Virus record (IMG/VR): IMGVR_UViG_2526164634_000024
Coordinates: 1-12,834 of that record
Source: a virus
Taxonomy: Duplodnaviria; Heunggongvirae; Uroviricota; Caudoviricetes
Length of the DNA stretch: 12,834 bases
Strand: one strand, 5' to 3'
Every line of letters begins with the position of its first letter. Within the stretch, counting starts at the first letter, position 1. The notes under the pieces are model-generated. The model was not told the origin of the DNA. It searched no databases and saw nothing but the letters and a program-made list of their open reading frames with translations. The position numbers and the translations under genes are program-made. This document shows positions 1 through 12,834 of the stretch, one piece after another.

Positions 1-960
1 TTACTCCTTGTCCATTGCGTACAGCCCATTAACCAGAGCAAATTGTGGCACCCCGTCCGCGATGAAAGTCGCATTAACTCCGCAGGCTTCGCGGATAGCG
101 GGTGCCACAATCTCCGCCCCGCCACCGACAACCATCACCCGCCCGTAACCCGAAAAACCCGCCAGCGCGCGGATCACGCGTTGTTTCAGTGTTTCTTCCT
201 TTTCACGAATAACCGCCATCAGGCTGGCGTAATGCGCGTCATTGTGGATGTGCTGGCGCAGCCAGGCTTCATCATGGCGATGTTCGATAATGGTATTGGC
301 GATGTGGTGACTGGTGCGCATACCGTTAGTGGCCATCACCGACAGTACGGCATCGGCCATAAGAGAAACGCCTACGTGTGGATCGCAAAACACCTGGCTG
401 ATACCTGCCAGTTGCCCCTGAACCTTTGCCACATCCAGCGTGGTTCCGCCCAAATCCACAATCAGCAGGGATTCAAACGGACTCATGTCAGCCAGTGCTT
501 TAAAGCCAGCCGGAATGGATTCAGGCATAACCCGTACGTTACGGATAGTGAATGCTTCGCCGTTCTGGTACTCCACCGGGCGCATAACGTTCGCTTTTTT
601 GCGGTTGATGTTGGCCATGTCCGGCTGTGCGTTTGTGTCGAAATACTCGCTCAGTGGCAGGGTAACAACCACATCCACTTCCTGTGGCGTGATGTCTGAT
701 TTGACCAGCGCGTGATGAATGGCAATGACATTCACATCGCTGTACTGGTATTGCGTGTCGGTCGTCTGGACAAAGCGATCGCTGACCGGATCAAAACCAT
801 AGCGCACGCCATCAAGCATGTAGTTAGCAGGCTGCGAGCCACCGAACGGCGCAGACCATTCCGACTTGAAGCTGTTCGGGCTGATGGCGTTGCGGCGTTC
901 GCCGTTCTCAGTCCATGCCAGCTTGATGTTGGTGGAGCCGTCGTCGATGTAAATTTTCAT
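1..960 (-). CDS. ParM/StbA-family actin-like ATPase (plasmid-segregation type), complete, 319 aa
   Basis: ORF from ATG at 960 to TAA at 1-3; AAGGA Shine-Dalgarno 8 nt upstream. N-terminus MKIYIDDGSTNIKLAW plus PNSFK, YSDVNV..HHAL, VMPESIPAG, LIVDLGGTTLD and VVGGGAE blocks match actin-fold nucleotide-binding motifs as I recall them from R1/R100 ParM (StbA); size matches ParM (~320 aa). Confidence 0.8.
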   Translation of the reverse strand: MKIYIDDGSTNIKLAWTENGERRNAISPNSFKSEWSAPFGGSQPANYMLDGVRYGFDPVSDRFVQTTDTQYQYSDVNVIAIHHALVKSDITPQEVDVVVTLPLSEYFDTNAQPDMANINRKKANVMRPVEYQNGEAFTIRNVRVMPESIPAGFKALADMSPFESLLIVDLGGTTLDVAKVQGQLAGISQVFCDPHVGVSLMADAVLSVMATNGMRTSHHIANTIIEHRHDEAWLRQHIHNDAHYASLMAVIREKEETLKQRVIRALAGFSGYGRVMVVGGGAEIVAPAIREACGVNATFIADGVPQFALVNGLYAMDKE

Positions 961-991
961 GTCGGTTTTCCTTATGTTGATTAATTAATCG

Positions 992-1103
992 TTTACGGGA
1001 TTCTGAAATCCCGTTTTTGCCTGTTTTGTGCGCGCCTCATATATCGCTGCGCGTTTTTTGCTCATTTACGGGATTCGTGAGTCCCGTTTCTGTCTGTTTT
1101 TTG
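992..1103. repeat. Two imperfect ~39-bp direct repeats (992-1030 and 1065-1103, period 73 bp), each containing a short palindrome (CGGGATT-n4-AATCCCG; ACGGGA-n8-TCCCGT) followed by a T-rich tract
   Basis: Read directly: TTTACGGGATTCTGAAATCCCGTTTTTGCCTGTTTTGTG versus TTTACGGGATTCGTGAGTCCCGTTTCTGTCTGTTTTTTG (~33/39 identical). Copy 1 is intergenic between the replication gene stop and the ParM-like start; copy 2 lies in the last ~20 codons of the replication gene. Confidence 0.6.
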
Positions 1104-3877
1104 TTTCCACTGGTCAGGCCACCCCGCAGCAGGTCTGCTTTGCGGCTGGCGCGTTCAGTGGTTTCACTGATTCTCTGTGCGTGCTCTGCGTCGCGGATGG
1201 CGCGCAGCATGTCAGAAAGCACGGTAACGGGTGTTTTCATGGTGTTCTGGTCCTGCTGAAGTGTGGATGCCAGGCGTGCGGCGGCTTCAGGGTCTGATGC
1301 CCCCAGCTGTGCCAGATAGCTGGCGACCGGGTTATGGCGGATCTCCGTGCTGCTTACGCCATGATTACGGCTCAGACGCTGCCAGAGCTGCGTGATTCGG
1401 CTGTCCGGGCGGGTATCCGGTTTGCGTACAATTTCAAATCCCTGCGGTGCAATGATGCTGCCGTCAACGTACAGACTGCCGCCCCGTAACAGGTGCTGCA
1501 TCTGTTGTTCACCGATATGCAGGCCGAGAGATTCAGCAGACTCCCGCCATTCTTTAGCGAGTAACTCGTGGTTATCAGGCAAAGGCCGCTGCTGTTTGCG
1601 GCTCTGTGTCCAGTTCTGCATTTCATCGCTGCTGTTTTTTGCCTGTTTGTCACGAAGCGAACGCATCAGCGCCCGGCGTTCGTGCCGTTTCAGTGAGCGC
1701 ATCCATTCATTTACTTCAACGCCGTCAGGAAGCTGCGGCCACGGTGCTGGCCGTTCTTCCGGCTGTTCTGTCCCGTTGTTGCCTGTTTCCTGTACACGGG
1801 GACAGTTATTGCCACGAGTCCAAGGGGCGGCAGGGCCGCCCTGAAGGTCAAAACCATTTTCGCGGGCGCTGTCTTCCGCTTCCGGTTTACGTCTTACCAG
1901 CTTCCAGTTATCCGGATGTGTGCACACACGGGAAGACTCCCCGATGAGTGGTGACCAGATCCCGTAAATCTGTACGCTCTGTTCGCCGTAATCGTTCAGC
2001 TCATCTGCGAGGTCGTAGGCGGTGCGAATCAGGTAGTCTTTGCGTGGAACAAGTACGCCGCCCTGTTTTTCAATGTAGGAGGCAAAACACCCGGCATCAG
2101 CGGCAGCGAGCACTGCATCCATTGCGTCATCCTTCAGCCGTTGCGGGCCTTCCGGGTTGCGTGCCATCTGGCTGGCAAGGCGGCGCAGTTCACGCCACAC
2201 CTGACGGGAGGGGATGCCAAAGAACTGGAACTGGCGGACCCGGTGAAGGCGCGCCCAGCCGATGGCGCGCTCCACGCTCTCGGCCATTGATTTTCCGGTT
2301 TCGTGGTCAACGCGTGGCTTGCCCGTTTTCGGGTCGATACCATCCACGGCGCGGCTGTCCAGGTTCTTTCCGATGTAGGTGGCGATGTAGCTGGTCGGTG
2401 TGCCTTTTGAGCCGTCGACGTACTCTGCCTTAAAGCGTGGGGTAATATCATCACCCAGCTCGTGACGATCTTCCTGAATGGCAATATCGCGGGTGTGGGA
2501 CACAATGGTGTCGATTTCTTCCGGATGAGCAAAGACCATCATATGCCAGTGCACGGTGCCGTCATGGTGAGGCTCCACCGTGCGGATGCCATACCAGCGC
2601 AGGCCGTCGCGGTTCAGTTTCTTGCGGACCGCCGCAAAAAACGAGTTAACCAGGTAATCGCTGGAGTCGCGCATAGTGGCCCCGTTCCATTTGGGATTCG
2701 GATGACCGTTCTCCGTTGTTGCGTGGTATTTTGACGGGCAGGTGACAGTCAGAAACACCGCTCTGTCGCCACGGGCTTCGGCCAGAAGTTCCAGCCCCTT
2801 CATGGTGGCCATCATTTCTGCCTTACGGTGAACCGGGTTACTTACTCCCGCGTAATACACTGTCTCAAGATCAATCGTGAACCCGTCTTCGTTTTCCAGC
2901 ATGAAACTTTTCAGGAAATCGCGTGTTTTCTCGCGCTGTGCGCGAAACTCGCTTAACGCATCCTGGCTCAGATAGGGCGATGTTTTTCTGGAAACCAGAC
3001 AGGCGGCGCGGAGTTGTTCTTCTCTCCACTCGCAACGTAACAGCCACAGTTTGCGTTTCCACCATTCCGCACAGGTCAGGCGAAGGATTGCGCCCGGCAG
3101 CAGCTCCGTGTCTGGTTCGTTCCTCCGGCCTTTGTCTGTTGTCAGTGCGTCATAATGCGGAGGCATGGCGTGCAGGTGTAACGCCATGCGGGCCAGCATC
3201 TGATACGCCTTCAGCGTTACATCCATGGTCAGCTCGCCATCAGTCGCACCAAAGCCATCGCAGAGTTTTTCGAAGGTGCTGCTGAACATCGCCGCCGTCA
3301 TGGTGGCCAGCGTCTGTATCTGGTGTTTGTTGAGCTGCGGCAGGTAAAGCAAATCGTCCAGGCGTTCGCGTCCGGCAAGGGAGCGATAACCCGGTGTCAG
3401 CCAGTGTCCGTCAGTGCGATCCAGACGTTCGAATATTTTGCGCAGGGTTCCGCGTGCATAGCGTTCTGCCTGCCAGCTCTTTTTGCCTTTCCGGCGATCG
3501 ACTTCCTGTTTTTTGCGCAGGAAAGAGAGGTGGCGGCTCAGAGGTTCACGCAGATAAACGGGAAGCACCTTCAGTGTGGCAAAAGCACGGGCCACCGGGT
3601 CTTGTTCTGTTGCCTGACGCTTGCTGATGATGCTTTGTGCCAGCTTTTCACGCTGTCCGGCTTCCTCAAGGGATGCCATGAGTTTTTTACCCACGGTGGA
3701 TTGTGCGAAAAAGGCTTCCTCCTTCGCTTCCTGTTCTTCCAGAGCCTTTTTGTCTGCCTCAAGGTAGTAACGGATGGCGCGTTGCAGGTCGGTTTCAGTT
3801 TCCTGCCTGTGCTCCGTAAATCTGGCCGGATCAATGGCTGGCCGTGGTTCATTCCAGCTCCATGCAAACTCATTCAT
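1037..3877 (-). CDS. Phage P2 gpA-family rolling-circle replication initiator (HUH endonuclease), ~946 aa
   Basis: Contains VEPHHDGTVHWHMMVF (HUH-type motif, cf. P2 A VEPHHDGTPHWHMMLF as recalled) and SYIATYIGKNLD (cf. P2 A GYIAKYISKNID). Preferred start is ATG at 3877 (MNEFAWSW...), overlapping the upstream ORF stop as ATGA; the ORF-track start at 3904 is a GTG. Stop TGA at 1037-1039. Confidence 0.85.
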   Translation of the reverse strand: MNEFAWSWNEPRPAIDPARFTEHRQETETDLQRAIRYYLEADKKALEEQEAKEEAFFAQSTVGKKLMASLEEAGQREKLAQSIISKRQATEQDPVARAFATLKVLPVYLREPLSRHLSFLRKKQEVDRRKGKKSWQAERYARGTLRKIFERLDRTDGHWLTPGYRSLAGRERLDDLLYLPQLNKHQIQTLATMTAAMFSSTFEKLCDGFGATDGELTMDVTLKAYQMLARMALHLHAMPPHYDALTTDKGRRNEPDTELLPGAILRLTCAEWWKRKLWLLRCEWREEQLRAACLVSRKTSPYLSQDALSEFRAQREKTRDFLKSFMLENEDGFTIDLETVYYAGVSNPVHRKAEMMATMKGLELLAEARGDRAVFLTVTCPSKYHATTENGHPNPKWNGATMRDSSDYLVNSFFAAVRKKLNRDGLRWYGIRTVEPHHDGTVHWHMMVFAHPEEIDTIVSHTRDIAIQEDRHELGDDITPRFKAEYVDGSKGTPTSYIATYIGKNLDSRAVDGIDPKTGKPRVDHETGKSMAESVERAIGWARLHRVRQFQFFGIPSRQVWRELRRLASQMARNPEGPQRLKDDAMDAVLAAADAGCFASYIEKQGGVLVPRKDYLIRTAYDLADELNDYGEQSVQIYGIWSPLIGESSRVCTHPDNWKLVRRKPEAEDSARENGFDLQGGPAAPWTRGNNCPRVQETGNNGTEQPEERPAPWPQLPDGVEVNEWMRSLKRHERRALMRSLRDKQAKNSSDEMQNWTQSRKQQRPLPDNHELLAKEWRESAESLGLHIGEQQMQHLLRGGSLYVDGSIIAPQGFEIVRKPDTRPDSRITQLWQRLSRNHGVSSTEIRHNPVASYLAQLGASDPEAAARLASTLQQDQNTMKTPVTVLSDMLRAIRDAEHAQRISETTERASRKADLLRGGLTSGNKKQTETGLTNPVNEQKTRSDI

Positions 3878-4263
3878 GGCTGGTATCCCGTCACGCGCTG
3901 CCACTCCTGCGAGAAGAGGGCAGAAAGGCGGTTAAATTCAGCGGTGTATTCACTCAGCGAGGCACACCCGCCAGCAGTGCGATGCGCCAGCATTGCCGCA
4001 AATACGGAGGCCGGGGAGTCGTAATACGCCAGCAGTGATTCTCCGTGTGGTGTCAGGCAGTGCAACGCCAGCCCGTGTGGTGTGAAGTCCACGCGGTAGC
4101 AGTCGTCTACTGTGAAATAAAGGGTGTCTGCATTCTCCGGTTTTGTGGTGCGTGCTCTGTTGTCACGACCACGGATGTAGAGATCAAATAATCCCTGAAG
4201 AACGGGAGCCAGACGGGTGTCCTGTGTGCGCACCCATCTTGTGAAGTCATGAGCGTCAATCAT
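3874..4263 (-). CDS. Hypothetical protein, 129 aa, translationally coupled to the replication initiator
   Basis: ATG at 4263, stop at 3874-3876 overlapping the Rep start (ATGA); same strand and context as the early operon. No family recognised. Confidence 0.55.
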   Translation of the reverse strand: MIDAHDFTRWVRTQDTRLAPVLQGLFDLYIRGRDNRARTTKPENADTLYFTVDDCYRVDFTPHGLALHCLTPHGESLLAYYDSPASVFAAMLAHRTAGGCASLSEYTAEFNRLSALFSQEWQRVTGYQP

Positions 4264-4335
4264 GCTGCAATTCTCTTTACTACAGATGTGCGAAGGCCTC
4301 CCGCCGCAAGGTGCAGGAAAGGCCCGGAACAGGAA

Positions 4336-4566
4336 TTAATGGAGTTTGTTTTGCTGCTGGAAGAGTTGTTGCAGCTCGCGCAGATCATCCGCCAGATAGC
4401 TGAAAACAGAGGCGGAATAGATGTTCGATAGCGCGTGGCTGCGCTCATGCAGCATATTGATGTGCATGATTTGCGCGACGCGTGATGCGCGGAAAAGTCT
4501 ACGGTTGATTTCAGTCTGGATGTGACGACGCGCAGCGTATGCGCGCTGTTGTTTGCGGTTTGCCAT
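4336..4566 (-). CDS. Hypothetical small basic protein, 76 aa
   Basis: ATG at 4566 preceded by AAGAGG Shine-Dalgarno at 7-nt spacing; R/K-rich N-terminus. No family recognised. Confidence 0.55.
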   Translation of the reverse strand: MANRKQQRAYAARRHIQTEINRRLFRASRVAQIMHINMLHERSHALSNIYSASVFSYLADDLRELQQLFQQQNKLH

Positions 4567-4745
4567 GGTGTGGCCTCTTTGCTCGGTGATAGAAATAGCT
4601 CACCATCCAGAGTTGAGAATCTCGGGGTGGCGAGACGTACAGGGTTCTCAACACCGGAGAGCAAAGAATCCGGCCCGACCGAAGTCGGCCCCGTACGCCC
4701 CGCCATAATTCTGACGCGAAAAAGACGTGGCAATACAGTACGCAC

Positions 4746-4766
4746 AAAAAAACCGCTGGCGCGGTT
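4746..4766 (-). terminator. Candidate intrinsic terminator on the minus strand (6-bp GC stem AACCGC/GCGGTT, 4-nt loop, followed by a 7-U run)
   Basis: Plus-strand sequence AAAAAAACCGCTGGCGCGGTT reads on the minus strand as hairpin followed by TTTTTTT. The stem is short, so this is tentative. Confidence 0.35.
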
Positions 4767-4838
4767 ATGCGCTTTGCTCTGTATCGGGTTGAGAATCCCG
4801 GCACCCGTTTTATGAGGTGCAGCGGAAATGTAACCTGA

Positions 4839-4867
4839 CCGATTGCGGCATGGCAAGCGGTTTTTTT
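4839..4867 (+). terminator. Candidate intrinsic terminator on the plus strand (8-bp stem with one mismatch, 6-nt loop, 7-T run)
   Basis: CCGATTGC-GGCATG-GCAAGCGG-TTTTTTT read directly. No credible plus-strand protein gene lies upstream, which suggests a plus-strand non-coding or antisense transcript. Confidence 0.35.
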
Positions 4868-4888
4868 GTGTGTGCATGTTCTGGTTTC

Positions 4889-5188
4889 TTACTGGTTCAG
4901 AAAAAAATCAAAAACCTTGTCAATGCGTTGCAGCAGCTCTTGCTGCATTGCTTCCGGCGTTTCCGGTTCGCCAGGTGCCCCCAGCGTTGCGCAGAAATCA
5001 GCGATTTCATGATGGAGCGTCAGGCGAATGGCAGGAGCCGTGGTTCTGGCGTGCTCCAGCTGATCCAGCAGTGCCAGCACAGCAGACGGCGAGAGCATTG
5101 CGCGAAATGCCAGTAATTTTTGAGGAGTTGCCATTCGTTGCAGGGCAAATGCCAGTTCGCGTAGCTTCTGGTGGTTGATGGTGCTCAT
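4889..5188 (-). CDS. Hypothetical protein, 99 aa
   Basis: ATG at 5188 overlaps the stop of the upstream ORF (ATGA); part of the leftward early operon. No family recognised. Confidence 0.55.
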   Translation of the reverse strand: MSTINHQKLRELAFALQRMATPQKLLAFRAMLSPSAVLALLDQLEHARTTAPAIRLTLHHEIADFCATLGAPGEPETPEAMQQELLQRIDKVFDFFLNQ

Positions 5189-5451
5189 GTTCTGGCTTCC
5201 TTCAGTAGCTGGTTAAACATGTGAGTAAGTGGATTGCTACACCCGAACGGCATCGGGTTTACTTGGTAAGAAGCCTGGCCTCCAGTTTTGCGAGCGCGAC
5301 CACCTGTGCTGCGGTTTGTTCTGATGACTAAGCCGCCGCGCCAAAGTTGGCGTAACTCAGCATTAATGGCTGTGGTTGGAGTATTCAGTGCTGCGGCGAT
5401 CTCTCCGCCGCTACACCCCGGATGAGTAGCGATGTAGTCCAGAATGGTCAT
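5185..5451 (-). CDS. Putative small winged-helix DNA-binding protein, 88 aa
   Basis: N-terminal ILDYIATHPGCSGGEIAAALNTPTTAINAELRQLWRGGLV pattern resembles winged-HTH recognition modules; start overlaps the upstream stop (ATGA). Family assignment is tentative. Confidence 0.5.
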   Translation of the reverse strand: MTILDYIATHPGCSGGEIAAALNTPTTAINAELRQLWRGGLVIRTNRSTGGRARKTGGQASYQVNPMPFGCSNPLTHMFNQLLKEART

Positions 5452-5651
5452 CTGCGTGGCTCCTGTACTTGTCGGATAAGATTCACCCGCGCCACGTTGG
5501 TGGCGCAGAAATAAGTGCCGTCAGTGAGGTAGATGTGGTGCGCATCCTTTTCCGAACGATGTTTGTCGATAGTGGTAATCAGGCGTTCGTCGACCTCGTA
5601 TTCGCGCCCTCTGGAGGTAAAGCGAACGACGGAAAAATGCTTAATTGCCAT
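5448..5651 (-). CDS. Hypothetical protein, 67 aa
   Basis: ATG at 5651 with strong AAGGGGG Shine-Dalgarno upstream; stop overlaps the next start (ATGA). Confidence 0.55.
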   Translation of the reverse strand: MAIKHFSVVRFTSRGREYEVDERLITTIDKHRSEKDAHHIYLTDGTYFCATNVARVNLIRQVQEPRR

Positions 5652-5674
5652 TGCGCCCCCTTTGTCCAGTAACC

Positions 5675-6091
5675 CTATGCGTTAAATACGGCACGTTGCG
5701 CGTCATCAATGAATACAGCTTGAGAGCGTTCTATCAGGCGGAGATTTGTCAGAAGCTCAGACTCTTTTGTGTGGTAAGGCGTTATCAGGTATTTGCCGTG
5801 CAGTTCGGCAATAATGGTGTATTGCGGCATCATTGCTGAACCAAGAATATAAATGCAGCGTCCAATGCTGGACGGATTCATGGCTGCAACTGTTGACTGT
5901 GTTTTAAGAGTGTCGATTTCTTTGCTCTGTTCCTCAATAATTTTGGCTGCGTCAGCGGTGATTTTTGCAATGGTCAGTGCGTGAAGTGCTGCCATATGTT
6001 GGCTACGCTTCACGGCATCTTTAGCCGTTTCATCTTCCGCTTCTGATATTTTTTTTAATGTGTTGATAATGCCTTCTTCTTTTGTGTTCAT
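5675..6091 (-). CDS. Hypothetical protein, 138 aa (N-terminal coiled-coil-like)
   Basis: ATG at 6091 preceded by GGAGA Shine-Dalgarno at ~6 nt; no family recognised. Confidence 0.55.
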   Translation of the reverse strand: MNTKEEGIINTLKKISEAEDETAKDAVKRSQHMAALHALTIAKITADAAKIIEEQSKEIDTLKTQSTVAAMNPSSIGRCIYILGSAMMPQYTIIAELHGKYLITPYHTKESELLTNLRLIERSQAVFIDDAQRAVFNA

Positions 6092-6183
6092 TTTATATCT
6101 CCGTTATTTACGTGTGCGAATACCTCCGCGAATGCGGATAGTTTTCAGGTTTTCGGGTTTAATCTGGTGTTTTGTTTAAGCTG

Positions 6184-6297
6184 TTATTCGTCAGTGAAAA
6201 AGCGTTCAATCTTTTTTACTGAATGAATAATTCGCATAATCCCAATGGCGCAGGCCACCGAAATAATCAGAACAAGCCATGAGATAAATATACTCAT
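6184..6297 (-). CDS. Candidate small hydrophobic membrane peptide, 37 aa (MSIFISWLVLIISVACAIGIMRIIHSVKKIERFFTDE); not in the supplied ORF track
   Basis: Hand-translated: ATG at 6297-6295 overlaps the TGA stop of the upstream 80-aa ORF (ATGA), runs to TAA at 6186-6184. One predicted transmembrane helix followed by a basic/acidic tail. Confidence 0.4.
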   Translation of the reverse strand: MSIFISWLVLIISVACAIGIMRIIHSVKKIERFFTDE

Positions 6298-6536
6298 GCG
6301 ATATTCCCCAGCTTATACGGTTCAATATGTTCCCCGCATTCTGCGGCACAGATCAGCTCGGAAAGTTCGTTAAGTGCATCCAGATCATCAGCGTAAAAAG
6401 CGACGTCATACAAACTCCGGATTGCCCTGGTCAATGAGTCACGAGCTGCACGTTCAGCATGAGCGCCTGATGCACTTAAGCGAAAATAAAATCGTTCAAG
6501 TGCTTTGTTAATGAGAGTTTTATATTCTTTGCCCAT
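6294..6536 (-). CDS. Hypothetical protein, 80 aa
   Basis: ATG at 6536 with AAGGG Shine-Dalgarno upstream; coupled to the small downstream peptide ORF. Confidence 0.55.
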   Translation of the reverse strand: MGKEYKTLINKALERFYFRLSASGAHAERAARDSLTRAIRSLYDVAFYADDLDALNELSELICAAECGEHIEPYKLGNIA

Positions 6537-6547
6537 CGCAACGCCCT

Positions 6548-6826
6548 TTAATCTGCTTTCTGAATTTCAGCTTCTGAATCCATACAAATAATTTCGATAT
6601 ATGGTTCATCGCCATTAACCTGACGTGCCTTTTCAGCTTCGCTAATGATTCCGTGTACAGTCTGGTACGGAAGTTCTACGGTCAGGCGCGTGCCGTTCAG
6701 ATAAACGTAAGTAGCTGCATTTTTTTCTGATGGGACAACTCCATCAATAGCTGATGCGCGCAATAACAGTTCACCGCGAAAATCAATAAAACGGATAAAT
6801 ACACCTTGTGCATGCTCTTTGGTCAT
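6548..6826 (-). CDS. Hypothetical protein, ~92 aa (start taken at internal ATG 6826 rather than the ORF-track start at 6925)
   Basis: Start at 6826 follows the stop of the upstream ORF (6837) by 10 nt with a GGTG upstream; the 6925 start would overlap the upstream gene by ~90 nt. Confidence 0.45.
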   Translation of the reverse strand: MTKEHAQGVFIRFIDFRGELLLRASAIDGVVPSEKNAATYVYLNGTRLTVELPYQTVHGIISEAEKARQVNGDEPYIEIICMDSEAEIQKAD

Positions 6827-6836
6827 AACGCACCTG

Positions 6837-7175
6837 TTATAAATCAGTCTGTTTAATAAAACTTTGCCCGCGAAGCAGACGATCAACCGTGCGAAGTGCT
6901 TCGTACAATGTGAAATCCTGTCCAAACTGAGTGTCGCCGTTGCTCAGAGCAAAAATGCGGTTTCCGGTAAATGGGTTGCGTTGGCATCTGTGAACCACGA
7001 TTCCAGCTTTCTCAATCAGCCAGGTGTGTTCACCAATTTGTTTTACGGGATGGCCATCAGGTGTAGCGTGTGTTTCGCTCAGGCTGTAGCGGGAGTTACT
7101 ACGTGATGCACTGGTAGCGAAACGGTTAGCGTGGCGTTCCGTTCCGGTACGAAAATTATGGCGTTGCTTCAGCAT
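6837..7175 (-). CDS. Hypothetical protein, 112 aa; second gene of the leftward early operon
   Basis: ATG at 7175 with GAGGTG Shine-Dalgarno at 7-nt spacing, 14 nt after the Cox-like stop. Confidence 0.5.
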   Translation of the reverse strand: MLKQRHNFRTGTERHANRFATSASRSNSRYSLSETHATPDGHPVKQIGEHTWLIEKAGIVVHRCQRNPFTGNRIFALSNGDTQFGQDFTLYEALRTVDRLLRGQSFIKQTDL

Positions 7176-7189
7176 AAAATTACACCTCG

Positions 7190-7468
7190 TTATTTTGTCA
7201 TCTGCACGTATTTCTCTGCGCTCCTGATGGTTTTCAGGAATATTGCGAAAAGGTTTACTTTGCGTTTTGTGTTTCTTCCTTCTTGGGTGACGGGGATTAC
7301 TGATCTGTCGGCCTGCCTTCTTACCGCAAGAATGCTTTGATTCGTGCGTTTCGCGTAATCTTCCAGGCTTTCTTCAAGCACAGGTAACCCATGCTCATCA
7401 CGGTATGGGTAGAACGCCGCCAAACGCTCAAAATCCGCTTGTTCGTATGTGTTCAGGACTTTTGCCAT
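7190..7468 (-). CDS. Cox-like small HTH excisionase/early regulator, 92 aa
   Basis: First gene of the leftward operon, divergent from the C-type repressor as in P2; length matches P2 Cox (~91 aa); segment YAKRTNQSILAVRRQADRSVIPV resembles the P2 Cox region FAKLIGKSTGAVRRMIDKGKLPVI as recalled. Positional and weak-motif evidence only. Confidence 0.5.
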   Translation of the reverse strand: MAKVLNTYEQADFERLAAFYPYRDEHGLPVLEESLEDYAKRTNQSILAVRRQADRSVIPVTQEGRNTKRKVNLFAIFLKTIRSAEKYVQMTK

Positions 7469-7563
7469 GATGTGATAACCTATTCAATCTGGTGCTATTT
7501 GTGGCTTTTTGTGGCGTCAAGTGGTACTCAACTGATAACCAATATAGTATTCAGGTGCACACC
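7469..7563. promoter_or_regulatory. Divergent control region between the Cox-like and C-type repressor genes; contains direct repeats TTTGTGGC x2 (7498-7505, 7508-7515) and TGATAACC x2 (7471-7478, 7534-7541)
   Basis: Repeats read directly. P2 C repressor is known to recognise direct rather than inverted repeats at the early promoter. Promoter hexamers here are not confidently assignable by eye. Confidence 0.5.
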
Positions 7564-7875
7564 ATGTCAATAGAGATATCAAAGAAGCTAAAAGCAATTC
7601 GAGAATCTGAGGGACTTAGCCAGGCAAAGTTCGCGGATTCAATAGGTATTGCGGTTGGTACAGTTAAGCAATATGAGACTGGTATTAGAGGTGTGGGGAC
7701 GGAGGTTTTACTGAAAATCACAATGCATCCGAACTTTAAAAAATACACCACGTGGTTGATGAGTAACGAAACAAATGAGGCTGCTGGGCAGATCAGTCCG
7801 TCTCTCTCCCCTGATGGGCCAAAAAGCACATCGCCTTCTCAAAAACCCCGCAAGACTGGCACACAGCCCGGCTAA
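7564..7875 (+). CDS. P2 C-type immunity repressor (XRE-like HTH), 103 aa
   Basis: Start at internal ATG 7564 (MSIEISKK...) with AGGTG Shine-Dalgarno at 7 nt. HTH region LSQAKFADSIGIAVGTVKQYETG and C-terminal ...PNFKKYTTWLMSNE...AAGQISP resemble P2 C (..PQFTKYTLWFMTNQ...SGQIAP) as recalled. Located directly upstream of int, as in P2. Confidence 0.8.
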   Translation: MSIEISKKLKAIRESEGLSQAKFADSIGIAVGTVKQYETGIRGVGTEVLLKITMHPNFKKYTTWLMSNETNEAAGQISPSLSPDGPKSTSPSQKPRKTGTQPG

Positions 7876-7924
7876 TCATGGAGCGCTGGGGGCATGGTGG
7901 TCTTGTAACGCTGGGGTTTCACGA

Positions 7925-8902
7925 ATGAGCATAAAATCAATTCCGGGAGGGTATCTTCTTGACATGCGCCCGGAGGGGCGTAAAGGCAAACGCATTCGCA
8001 AAAAATTTAAAACGAAATCGGATGCAGTTTTATATGAGCGGTGGGTGCTGGCGCAACAGCATAACAATGAGTGGAAAGGAAACTCCATTGATCGCCGTCC
8101 GCTGTCAGTGCTTATTGACTTGTGGTGGAAATACCACGGCCAGCTAATGAAGTCAGGGCATAACACGCGCCTTAAATTGCTGCGCTTGAGTGAGGCAATG
8201 GATGACCCGTGCGTGCATAAACTTAATACAACGATGCTCACCGAGCTACGTGTGTCCAGGATAGAGCAGGGGATACAGCCCAGCACCATAAATCGAGAGA
8301 TTGGGGCGTTAAGCGCGATGTTTACCGCACTCATCTCATCCGGCCATTTTCTTAACGATAACCCCGTTCAAGGCCTTAAAGGAATGAAGGTTAACGAGCG
8401 CGAAATGGGATATCTGAGTAAGTCTGAATGTGTTCAGTTGCTGGATGCACTGGCTGAAAATCCCGATGAACGACTGGCTGTCGAAATCCTTCTGTCGACC
8501 GGGGCGCGATGGGGCGAGGTAGCGGCACTGGAGCAGCGCCGTGTTCTTCATTGTCGAATCACTTTTTCAAAAACGAAGAACAGCAAAAACCGTACCGTTC
8601 CTATTTCTGAAAGCCTGTTTGAAAAGATCAAAAAACGGGGCGGGAAACTGGTGTTTCCGACGCTGGATTATTCATTGGTTCGCGATGTCATCAAAACGGT
8701 CGCACCTGATGTTCCTGACGGCCAGGCTGTTCATGCGCTGCGCCACACCTTCGCCAGTCATTTCATGATGAACGGCGGCAATATTCTGACGCTCCAGAAA
8801 ATTCTGGGGCACGCAAAGATTCAGACAACGATGATTTATGCCCATCTTGCGCCGGATTACCTGCAGGATGCGGTGAGGTTTAATCCACTAGGAGGTGCTT
8901 AA
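7925..8902 (+). CDS. int: Tyrosine integrase, P2 Int-like, 325 aa
   Basis: Start at ATG 7925 (MSIKSIPGGY...). Conserved catalytic-region motifs LSTGARWGE, HALRHTFASHF and MIYAHLAPDY (catalytic Tyr); strong overall resemblance to P2 Int as recalled (GKRIRKKF, TGARWGE, PISE, NGG.I.TLQ.ILGH). Confidence 0.9.
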   Translation: MSIKSIPGGYLLDMRPEGRKGKRIRKKFKTKSDAVLYERWVLAQQHNNEWKGNSIDRRPLSVLIDLWWKYHGQLMKSGHNTRLKLLRLSEAMDDPCVHKLNTTMLTELRVSRIEQGIQPSTINREIGALSAMFTALISSGHFLNDNPVQGLKGMKVNEREMGYLSKSECVQLLDALAENPDERLAVEILLSTGARWGEVAALEQRRVLHCRITFSKTKNSKNRTVPISESLFEKIKKRGGKLVFPTLDYSLVRDVIKTVAPDVPDGQAVHALRHTFASHFMMNGGNILTLQKILGHAKIQTTMIYAHLAPDYLQDAVRFNPLGGA

Positions 8903-8904
8903 GA

Positions 8905-9267
8905 GTGAAGTTTCATTTAGATGAACTTAAAAGAATGGCAACGCTCGATAATTTTGCGCGTTTTCTCAATGAGTCGTCTACGAATGAAAAATGTTTGTCG
9001 TGTGGCGATACGGATATGTACATGTATTTGACGAATATTGTTGAGGTGGGGCCTGAGCCGAAAACTGCTGAGGAGTGTGATTTAGGCACTTTTGTTATGC
9101 TTGATTACATCGGTCCATTTACTGGGTATCCGGGATATGAGGGACATGATCGGGAAAATATCCATAACTATGAATTCCGACTTACCTGTAACAGATGTGG
9201 GTTTGTTCATCGTTACTCGGCCCGGGCCTTTATGAACTGGGTAGGCAAGCAGGGTGATGAGAAGTGA
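8905..9267 (+). CDS. Hypothetical Cys-rich (putative Zn-ribbon) protein, 120 aa
   Basis: GTG start at 8905, 2 nt after the int stop, with GGAGG Shine-Dalgarno 9 nt upstream (inside the int 3' end). Two CxxC pairs (CLSCG near residue 30, CNRCG near residue 100). Visibly AT-richer than the flanking int. No family recognised. Confidence 0.55.
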   Translation: MKFHLDELKRMATLDNFARFLNESSTNEKCLSCGDTDMYMYLTNIVEVGPEPKTAEECDLGTFVMLDYIGPFTGYPGYEGHDRENIHNYEFRLTCNRCGFVHRYSARAFMNWVGKQGDEK

Positions 9268-9704
9268 TGGCAGAGAATGTTGCACATATTTCGCGGTTCA
9301 GAAAAAAGAAAGAGAATGCCTATAATGTATCCAACAACCAAGTAACAGGAAGTGGTAATGATGGAGGTGATGGCATGAATGACGACCTTGAACGGCGGGT
9401 CAGTTGCCTGGAAAGTGATGTGACTGAAATCAAAAACAACCTGATTACTCTCACCACAAGAAGCGAATCCTTTGCTACCAAATCTGATGTACTGGAGATT
9501 CGCGAAGGGTTGAGGCTTGAGATGGCAGAATCGCGCCAATCCCTGAAGTCTGAGATGGCTGATTTACGCCAGTCTCTGAAAGTTGAGATGGCTGAGCATC
9601 GTACTGAACTTCAGAAATCATTTGCAAATCAGACTTGGTTACTCACAGGTATTGTCCTGTCTGCGATGGCCGTGCTTGTGGCTGTGGTTACTGTTATTAA
9701 GTAA
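9267..9704 (+). CDS. Hypothetical coiled-coil protein with C-terminal transmembrane anchor, ~145 aa (alternative start at 9375 giving ~109 aa)
   Basis: Start overlaps the upstream stop (GTGATGA). Internal ATG at 9375 has a perfect GGAGG at 7-nt spacing. Three tandem 11-residue repeats (EMAESRQSLKS / EMADLRQSLKV / EMAEHRTELQK) and hydrophobic C-terminus LLTGIVLSAMAVLVAVVTVIK. Confidence 0.55.
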   Translation: MAENVAHISRFRKKKENAYNVSNNQVTGSGNDGGDGMNDDLERRVSCLESDVTEIKNNLITLTTRSESFATKSDVLEIREGLRLEMAESRQSLKSEMADLRQSLKVEMAEHRTELQKSFANQTWLLTGIVLSAMAVLVAVVTVIK

Positions 9705-9829
9705 ATTTATGGCGGCGATATGATCCACAAAGTGACCACATCCCTGTTATTTGTTGTGGTTGGCTGTGTTTTTGTGTGTCTGTAAGTCTTTGATAATTAT
9801 CTAACTTGTTGATTTTTACTTGTGTTTAT

Positions 9830-9845
9830 GGCCGCTTGCGCGGCC
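9830..9845 (-). other. Perfect GC hairpin GGCCGC-TTGC-GCGGCC located 19 nt downstream of the acrB stop
   Basis: Read directly. No U-tract follows on the acrB strand, so it is not a canonical intrinsic terminator; it may be a 3' stabilising stem-loop or part of a recombination/junction region. Confidence 0.4.
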
Positions 9846-9864
9846 TTAGTGATTACACGTTGTA

Positions 9865-12834
<2,970 letters not shown>

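Follow-up and report, generated by a model that had tools for sequence, protein, structure and literature searches.

A 37-codon open reading frame (ORF) on the minus strand of a 12,834-nucleotide stretch of Caudoviricetes DNA (IMG/VR record IMGVR_UViG_2526164634_000024, positions 1 to 12,834; the whole stretch is termed the window here) is, to judge from its pattern of divergence among relatives, almost certainly a real coding gene. Comparison of related loci shows that its reading frame, its start codon, the ATGA junction at which it overlaps the preceding DUF4754 gene and the Shine-Dalgarno (SD)-like motif ahead of it are conserved under purifying selection. The explanation that, taken as a whole, we hold with moderate confidence is that the product is a bitopic inner-membrane protein, made from the second cistron of a DUF4754-peptide module, with an accessory role at the host envelope during early lytic growth.

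Reading frame, junction and selection

The peptide gene extends from 6297 to 6184 (minus strand), with its ATG at 6297-6295 and a TAA stop codon at 6186-6184; read 5′ to 3′ on that strand, positions 6297..6184 are ATGAGTATATTT...ACTGACGAATAA, and the product is the 37-residue peptide MSIFISWLVLIISVACAIGIMRIIHSVKKIERFFTDE. A prior sequence-only reading of the window had noted a short ORF spanning 6184-6297, with one predicted transmembrane (TM) helix followed by a charged tail, and had proposed that it is coupled to the upstream gene; the coordinates were right, with the strand to be specified as minus. At 6297-6294 (minus strand) the ATGA merges the peptide ATG with the TGA stop codon of an 80-residue ORF (6536..6294), giving a start/stop overlap that is the candidate junction for translational coupling between the DUF4754 and peptide genes. 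None of 85 related loci, comprising 80 IMG/VR contigs, 2 genomes and 3 annotated records, lacks the ATG, the ATGA junction or the open frame; the junction is retained also in the divergent loci L087, L097 and L101, in agreement with the proposed coupling.

Eight nucleotides 5′ of the peptide ATG, inside the DUF4754 coding sequence, there is an SD-like GGGG (6306..6309, minus strand), for which the duplex with the 16S rRNA 3′ end is calculated at -5.5 kcal/mol; the other genes of the operon range from -2.9 to -10.7 kcal/mol, and ~15% of background 20-mers reach -5 kcal/mol in 16S pairing. Over five lineages of differing sequence the motif pairs at -5.5 to -6.9 kcal/mol, with the divergent lineages having GGGAG, GAGAGGG or AGAGGG (-6.3 to -6.9 kcal/mol), and the purine motif persists while the overlapping C terminus of DUF4754 varies (LGNIA, LGSAA, IERAA or IQRAT).

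In close relatives, the variable sites at codon positions 1, 2 and 3 number 10, 4 and 15, respectively, and the pooled ratio of the proportions of non-synonymous and synonymous differences (pN/pS) is 0.26 in the peptide frame, whereas the two alternative frames give 1.38 and 1.02. Divergent alleles of the peptide are 41 residues long and include MNIFISWLILIISVLCAIGIVRIIDSVKDIESLFTGEKRRK and MNIFISWLILILAIICAVGIMRIINSIKTIESLFTGDKRHK; the ratio of non-synonymous to synonymous substitution rates (dN/dS) is 0.17, 0.13 and 0.12 in comparisons with L087, L097 and L101 (Fisher p 5e-5, 3.9e-5 and 1.4e-5), at pS values of 0.54-0.71, i.e. near saturation, and pN values of 0.15-0.24. The other two frames gave ratios of ~0.9-2.2 against the divergent alleles, none of them significant. 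Variable alignment columns make up 26% of the peptide coding sequence (CDS) and 28% of that of DUF4754, compared with 62% of the downstream 92-nt spacer, and 20 of the 37 residues are invariant between the 37- and 41-residue clades. Both of the checks that the sequence-only reading had named, on conservation of the frame in relatives and on a translation signal, thus came out in favor of the gene.

These values also bear on the alternative that the peptide itself has no function, the ORF being kept for the sake of translation only, for example by preventing Rho-dependent polarity, or as a DNA or RNA regulatory element. Such a reading would accord with the record for phage 186, which notes that gene A translation depends on orf84 being translated to its end, and with the tolerance of frameshifted 45-residue alleles, but is highly improbable given a dN/dS of 0.12-0.17 at near-saturated synonymous sites in this frame only, the residues held invariant between the two clades, the better conservation of the peptide than of its neighbor protein, and the lack of any Rfam match at the ORF.

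The 45-residue alleles are present in 7/85 loci and in the representatives P0090 and P0091. They arise by 1-nt deletions in one of two homopolymer runs, A6 (6212-6217) or T5 (6197-6201), both on the minus strand near the 3′ end of the peptide ORF, such that residues 1-28 or 1-33 are retained and the remainder is swapped for a polar C-terminal extension; either the extreme C terminus of the peptide is dispensable or these alleles are impaired. Phage 503458 (L086, NC_049341.1, 125-520) has frameshifts in both the DUF4754 and the peptide ORFs, and its gpA is annotated as three separate CDSs. The broken copy is consistent with homopolymer sequencing errors or with a decayed prophage, rather than with gene loss, and was not counted against the gene because DUF4754 is also frameshifted and gpA is split there.

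We considered, and rejected, a programmed -1 frameshift generating a DUF4754-TM fusion, since no slippery X XXY YYZ heptamer is present in the five lineages and the ATG is invariant. Read upstream from the ATG in the window, the peptide frame meets a stop codon at the sixth codon, after only 5 open ones, and the database "fusion" proteins of 103-128 residues are frameshifted assemblies, mostly reading the wrong frame.

The predicted membrane helix and its database relatives

Codons 3-21 (6235..6291, minus strand) encode the predicted TM helix, IFISWLVLIISVACAIGIM, and codons 22-37 (6187..6234, minus strand) a basic, amphipathic juxtamembrane tail, RIIHSVKKIERFFTDE. Residues 3-21 have a Hessa sum of -2.9 kcal/mol, the lowest 19-residue sum among the 60 ATG-initiated ORFs of 30-60 residues in the window, and a mean Kyte-Doolittle value of 2.7. 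An AlphaFold2 model made with a 6-sequence alignment is a single continuous helix from residue 2 to residue 35 (predicted local distance difference test score, pLDDT, 87.6), of which residues 22-35, RIIHSVKKIERFFT, are strongly amphipathic (hydrophobic moment, muH, 0.72). The flanks of the helix have no Lys or Arg residue on the N side and 4 on the C side, an asymmetry that, by the positive-inside rule, predicts an N-out/C-in orientation. The hydrophobicity, the modeled helix and the Lys/Arg count agree with the earlier description of one TM helix with a charged tail, and on this modeling the peptide is very probably an inner-membrane helix.

Among 42 distinct alleles, M1, S6, W7, L10, I11 and I24 are invariant; F4, C16, A17, G19, I20, I23 and K28 come close to this, and free variation (A/V/I/L/F/T) is confined to position 15. 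The variability has no significant helical periodicity (permutation p 0.46), and the helix therefore appears to be constrained on all of its faces rather than on one. Constraint of this sort on a TM segment, at saturated synonymous divergence, would exceed the needs of a generic anchor and points to specific helix packing, be it by self-association or with a partner. The SVAC at residues 13-16 is lipobox-like, and we therefore considered a lipoprotein or signal peptide; this assignment was rejected, as no column varies more than position 15, the -1 residue, and the hydrophobic core is preceded by no Lys or Arg.

The peptide gene had been described as unannotated, which it is not; it is listed in RefSeq, in the phage P88 record and in UniRef, and was missed only through the length cutoff of the ORF track used for the sequence-only reading. 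At the matching site of the Z885 prophage, the RefSeq CDS is WP_000021654.1, "hypothetical protein"; phage P88 names the peptide gp07, "membrane protein" (YP_009113050.1), vB_EcoM-569R5 labels it "putative membrane protein", and UniRef has it as "Prophage membrane protein", the exact sequence being in a 183-member 90% cluster that is represented on >1000 contigs. PGAP places a "hypothetical protein" CDS beside DUF4754 in 29/30 Escherichia coli records sampled evenly down the ranking. P88 gp07 is the same gene, being 97% identical over all 37 residues, in the same place after DUF4754 and with the same overlap. There is no substantive difference from gp07 or WP_000021654.1, the records for which carry a predicted name only, and, by sequence identity and synteny, the peptide belongs to this catalogued but uncharacterized cluster.

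The region containing the ORF was found in 1384 of 5426 complete E. coli genomes (~25%), and the prophages with the module include those of O157:H7 and O104:H4 strains. At a threshold of E <= 1e-3, an exhaustive phmmer search against 1.84 billion representative proteins returned only 8 clusters, which represent 37-, 41-, 45- and 59-residue forms of one and the same protein, with neither distant homologs nor fused architectures; a homolog search with a natural 41-residue allele gave 5 close clusters only, and a scan of genome contigs with DUF4754 gave 2 loci only. By tblastn against 50,697 phage records, the peptide was found only in Xuanwuvirus-type phages of Escherichia and Citrobacter. Searches of Pfam, PHROGs, NCBIfam and PADLOC gave no match to the peptide above noise (no PHROG match below E 0.4). 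The peptide thus falls in no described functional family; its kind, that of the small single-pass membrane proteins encoded in temperate-phage early operons, is well known. A 98% identical DUF4754-peptide module is present on a 226-kb contig labeled Vagococcus sp. WN89Y (L004, NZ_JBQPOM010000071.1), which is probably an enterobacterial contaminant or a mislabeled assembly.

The DUF4754 partner and the prophage early operon

The upstream partner cistron (6294..6536, minus strand) encodes an 80-residue protein that matches Pfam PF15946 (DUF4754) over its full length (E 2.8e-54). Its AlphaFold2 model is all-helical (pLDDT 88.8), with helices at residues 4-48 and 52-66 and an extended, conserved IEPY tail, and the C-terminal half, as read from the sequence, is acidic. 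No significant fold match (best Foldseek E 1.7) or sequence-profile match was found for DUF4754 in the PDB, and there was no PADLOC match. In each DUF4754 locus examined, the peptide gene comes next and overlaps by the same 4 nt, and the pair is kept amid changed neighbors: L087-L090 differ in their downstream genes, L097 has a different repressor and different early genes, and L101 is without DUF4761 and the 92-residue gene. Comparison of the window with L097 and L101 reveals 39% and 36% identity for DUF4754, but 62% and 68% identity for the peptide, which is therefore the slower-evolving partner.

On this comparative evidence, DUF4754 and the peptide form a conserved two-gene module; that the two proteins also work together has, in our estimation, close to an even chance. 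It is conceivable, if speculative, that the acidic second helix of DUF4754 is matched electrostatically to the basic tail of the peptide. The presence of two small overlapping genes is also a feature of type II and type V-like protein toxin-antitoxin pairs, an assignment that we rejected: the pair has no promoter of its own, no antitoxin domain was found (DUF4754 gave no helix-turn-helix (HTH), ribbon-helix-helix or RNase match), and it is not a mobile cassette occurring outside one phage lineage, the module being present only inside P88-like prophage early operons, with the few "plasmid" matches being the same prophage.

The window contains the immunity and early genes of a prophage of the P88-like type (genus Xuanwuvirus, Peduoviridae, P2 family), in agreement with the earlier assignment of the ORF to a prophage early region. 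The surrounding 1.4 kb is 99.9% identical to the Z885 prophage of E. coli O157:H7 and 86-92% identical to phages P88, P884B11, PhiR44_2 and PhiSM. On the plus strand are genes for an HTH repressor (the C repressor, 7564-7875) and an integrase (7925-8902). An early-promoter-like site, TTGACA-18-TATATT (7541..7570, minus strand; 11/12 consensus match), is oriented toward the early operon and diverges from the C-repressor gene; it corresponds in position to Pe of P2 and pR of 186 and may function likewise. The minus-strand operon begins with a 92-residue first gene, which is cox-like by position only and has no Pfam match, followed by DUF4761, a 92-residue ORF, DUF4754, the 37-residue ORF, a 138-residue ORF and a 67-residue ORF, and continues with a MarR-type winged HTH gene, an Ead/Ea22-like gene, the C4 and isrK RNAs, a Derepression-family ORF, a 129-residue ORF, gpA and ParM. 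The peptide is hence the product of the fifth cistron, and the DUF4754-peptide pair begins 11 nt behind the preceding gene.

Between the peptide gene and the next gene is a non-coding spacer (6092..6183, minus strand), which is a mosaic boundary and the segment in which 62% of the columns vary; from 6092 down, the relatives L087-L101 carry ORFs of 138, 92, 71 or 84 residues. There is a weak plus-strand promoter-like site at 6043-6070 (9/12), with a short GC hairpin followed by Ts at 6125-6138 (plus strand), from which an RNA of ~60 nt, antisense to the 138-residue gene at its 5′ end, could be made; such promoter-like and terminator-like sites are no more frequent than expected by chance, and conservation of the spacer is poor.

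Further along the operon, two RNAs score above the Rfam gathering score, i.e. a C4 antisense RNA (4623-4710, minus strand, 78.5 bits) and an isrK Hfq-binding RNA (4746-4820, minus strand, 62.8 bits), just upstream of a 76-residue ORF of the Pfam "Derepression" family (4336-4566, minus strand). Together these look like a P1/P7-type, immI-like antirepressor control unit in a P2-family prophage, and the mechanically called 205-residue ORF that covers the two RNAs (4260-4877, minus strand) is probably spurious. After gpA there is a full-length gene for a ParM plasmid-segregation actin (window positions 1-960, minus strand), and Z885 has a partition/stability gene next; the same DUF4754 module is present on a plasmid-classed record of 34,461 bp (NZ_CP148288.1). 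The ParM gene and this record suggest that an episome may at times be the form in which such phages persist or are assembled.

At the other end of the window, the prophage adjoins an acrB-type efflux-pump gene (ORF 9865-12834, identified by eye); the chromosomal site varies, being btuC in Z885 and pheA/pheL in L091. Between the integrase and the acrB-type gene are two plus-strand cargo ORFs with a 4-nt overlap (8905-9267 and 9264-9704), neither of which gave a Pfam or PADLOC match; the second (146 residues) has repeated "SLK.EMAE"-type segments and a C-terminal hydrophobic anchor. The O157:H7 relative Z885 has different genes at this position.

Candidate roles of the peptide

The mechanism that we envisage is as follows. 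When the C repressor is lifted, or on infection, the early promoter would give a polycistronic mRNA, and ribosomes ending DUF4754 translation would re-initiate at the overlapping ATG, helped by the internal SD-like motif, such that both proteins are made together. The peptide would insert in the N-out/C-in orientation, such that the membrane is crossed by residues 3-21 and the basic, amphipathic residues 22-35 lie on the cytoplasmic face. The conservation of nearly every face of the TM helix, and the slower evolution of the peptide relative to DUF4754, suggest that the helix makes specific helix-helix contacts, either in self-association or with a host envelope protein, rather than serving as a generic anchor or a detergent-like pore former. 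Probable contacts of the tail are with the inner leaflet or with DUF4754, an acidic and helical protein that may dock on the tail or act in parallel. The role is most likely a non-structural, accessory early function directed at the host envelope in lytic growth or induction, e.g. in division, cell-wall synthesis or early exclusion; for the narrower proposal that the peptide acts on a host envelope process, we put the chances a little below even.

Comparison with known systems provides analogies of differing closeness. Phage 186 Fil (75 residues, a division inhibitor) and Dhr (66 residues, a host replication inhibitor), the genes for which overlap each other, and P2 Orf78 are likewise small, non-essential and host-directed, and are encoded in the same part of the early operon, i.e. 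between the Cox/Apl switch genes and gene A. They differ, however, in having no similarity to the peptide (best BLASTP E 0.38, over 6 residues) and no TM segment, with 19-residue Hessa sums of +9 to +17 compared with -2.9 for the peptide. The functional analogy that we favor is with Gp11 of Staphylococcus phage PhiNM1, a small membrane protein encoded by an early gene of a temperate phage, which binds MurG and DivIC and is not pore-forming (PMC11237401), although host and phage family differ. The bacterial proteins AcrZ, MgrB, MgtS, CydX and CcoQ/CcoS are also single-TM proteins of 30-60 residues, often N-out/C-in, and work by packing specifically, helix against helix, with a larger membrane protein (PMC12648545), but they are products of chromosomal host genes with known partners, and no homology to the peptide was found. 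The sequence-only reading had proposed a toxin, a modulator of division or membrane potential, or an exclusion factor, all of which are plausible as analogies.

The first of these would have the peptide as a membrane-damaging toxin, whether type I toxin-like, a holin or a programmed-cell-death effector, that oligomerizes and dissipates the proton-motive force, perhaps with DUF4754 as its antidote or chaperone. With its ~20 hydrophobic residues and short charged tail, the peptide does resemble Hok/Gef, Ldr, TisB, Ibs and Fst in length and in having a single hydrophobic helix, and some such toxins are encoded in prophages (PMC12648545); an upstream gene that encodes a small, acidic, helical protein and overlaps by 4 nt recalls toxin-antitoxin gene organization, and RonA, a 61-residue TM peptide, is a lethal effector held back by partner proteins (bioRxiv 10.1101/2023.04.06.535777). 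The small hydrophobic peptide is, however, the only type I feature that we observed, and a type I toxin-antitoxin assignment was rejected. Neither an Rfam RNA nor an antisense element was found at the ORF or in its vicinity, the only Rfam matches in the window being C4 and isrK (4623-4820), ~1.4 kb away, and no plus-strand promoter/terminator pair overlaps it, with promoter-like and terminator-like sites in the region being at the frequency expected from shuffled sequence and none placed to drive the pair. Nor is there a match to a toxin family in Pfam, NCBIfam or PADLOC, and, rather than being an autonomous locus, the pair is embedded in a long operon, with the peptide gene putatively coupled in translation to DUF4754. 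A novel small RNA antitoxin at the ORF retains some slight residual likelihood. The TM helix is, moreover, conserved position by position more strictly than would be expected of a generic pore former. A holin or antiholin was rejected in its own right, since the ORF is between the cox-like and gpA genes of the early operon, with no lysis gene nearby and no match to a holin profile; lysis genes of P2-family phages are in the late region. Overall, we consider a membrane-damaging toxin unlikely.

Superinfection exclusion, or blocking of DNA injection, by the peptide in the inner membrane, either early in infection or via leaky expression in the lysogen, has precedent in small inner-membrane exclusion proteins of other phages, such as T4 Imm and P22 SieA (for the latter, PMC10883804), and the presence of the module in such a proportion of complete E. 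coli genomes (1384/5426) fits with a competitive benefit. The peptide gene, however, belongs to the early lytic operon, is carried on the other strand from the repressor and integrase genes, and is without its own promoter; in a stable lysogen it would be expected to be silent, such that any exclusion would act early in infection, whereas a prophage does express its exclusion genes in the classical cases. There was, moreover, no PADLOC match, and exclusion as the function is decidedly unlikely.

Several points weigh against our preferred explanation of an accessory envelope protein acting in the early lytic phase. The membrane insertion and topology of the peptide are predictions; family searches reveal no homology of the peptide to any characterized protein; and the partner yields no functional clue, for want of an informative fold match to DUF4754. 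The co-occurrence and coupling of the two genes could reflect only the tight physical linkage of adjacent genes, and the 45-residue frameshift alleles, in which the last 4-9 residues are replaced, weaken the case for a specific interaction of the tail. Literature searches on DUF4754, the peptide sequence, Xuanwuvirus and CP-933T turned up nothing on the peptide gene, nor direct evidence for its translation, nor expression, localization or phenotype data for the peptide.

The gene is already annotated in thousands of genomes and its presence is hence no discovery; what is added here is firm evolutionary evidence for its translation and for selection at the amino-acid level, together with the observations that the peptide is more conserved than its neighbor and is in a fixed module with DUF4754. 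Small phage membrane proteins under such tight constraint have repeatedly proved to be specific inhibitors of host envelope machinery, and the peptide is a cheap and well-defined candidate for functional screening. A bolder, and unlikely, proposal is that DUF4754 and the peptide constitute a two-component host-takeover or early-exclusion device specific to P88-like prophages, in which the TM helix would bind an essential E. coli envelope protein (e.g. a divisome, lipid II or transport component) and DUF4754 would dock on the basic tail to regulate or extend the inhibition. Were this so, the module would represent a new small-protein inhibitor and target pair in ~25% of complete E. coli genomes.

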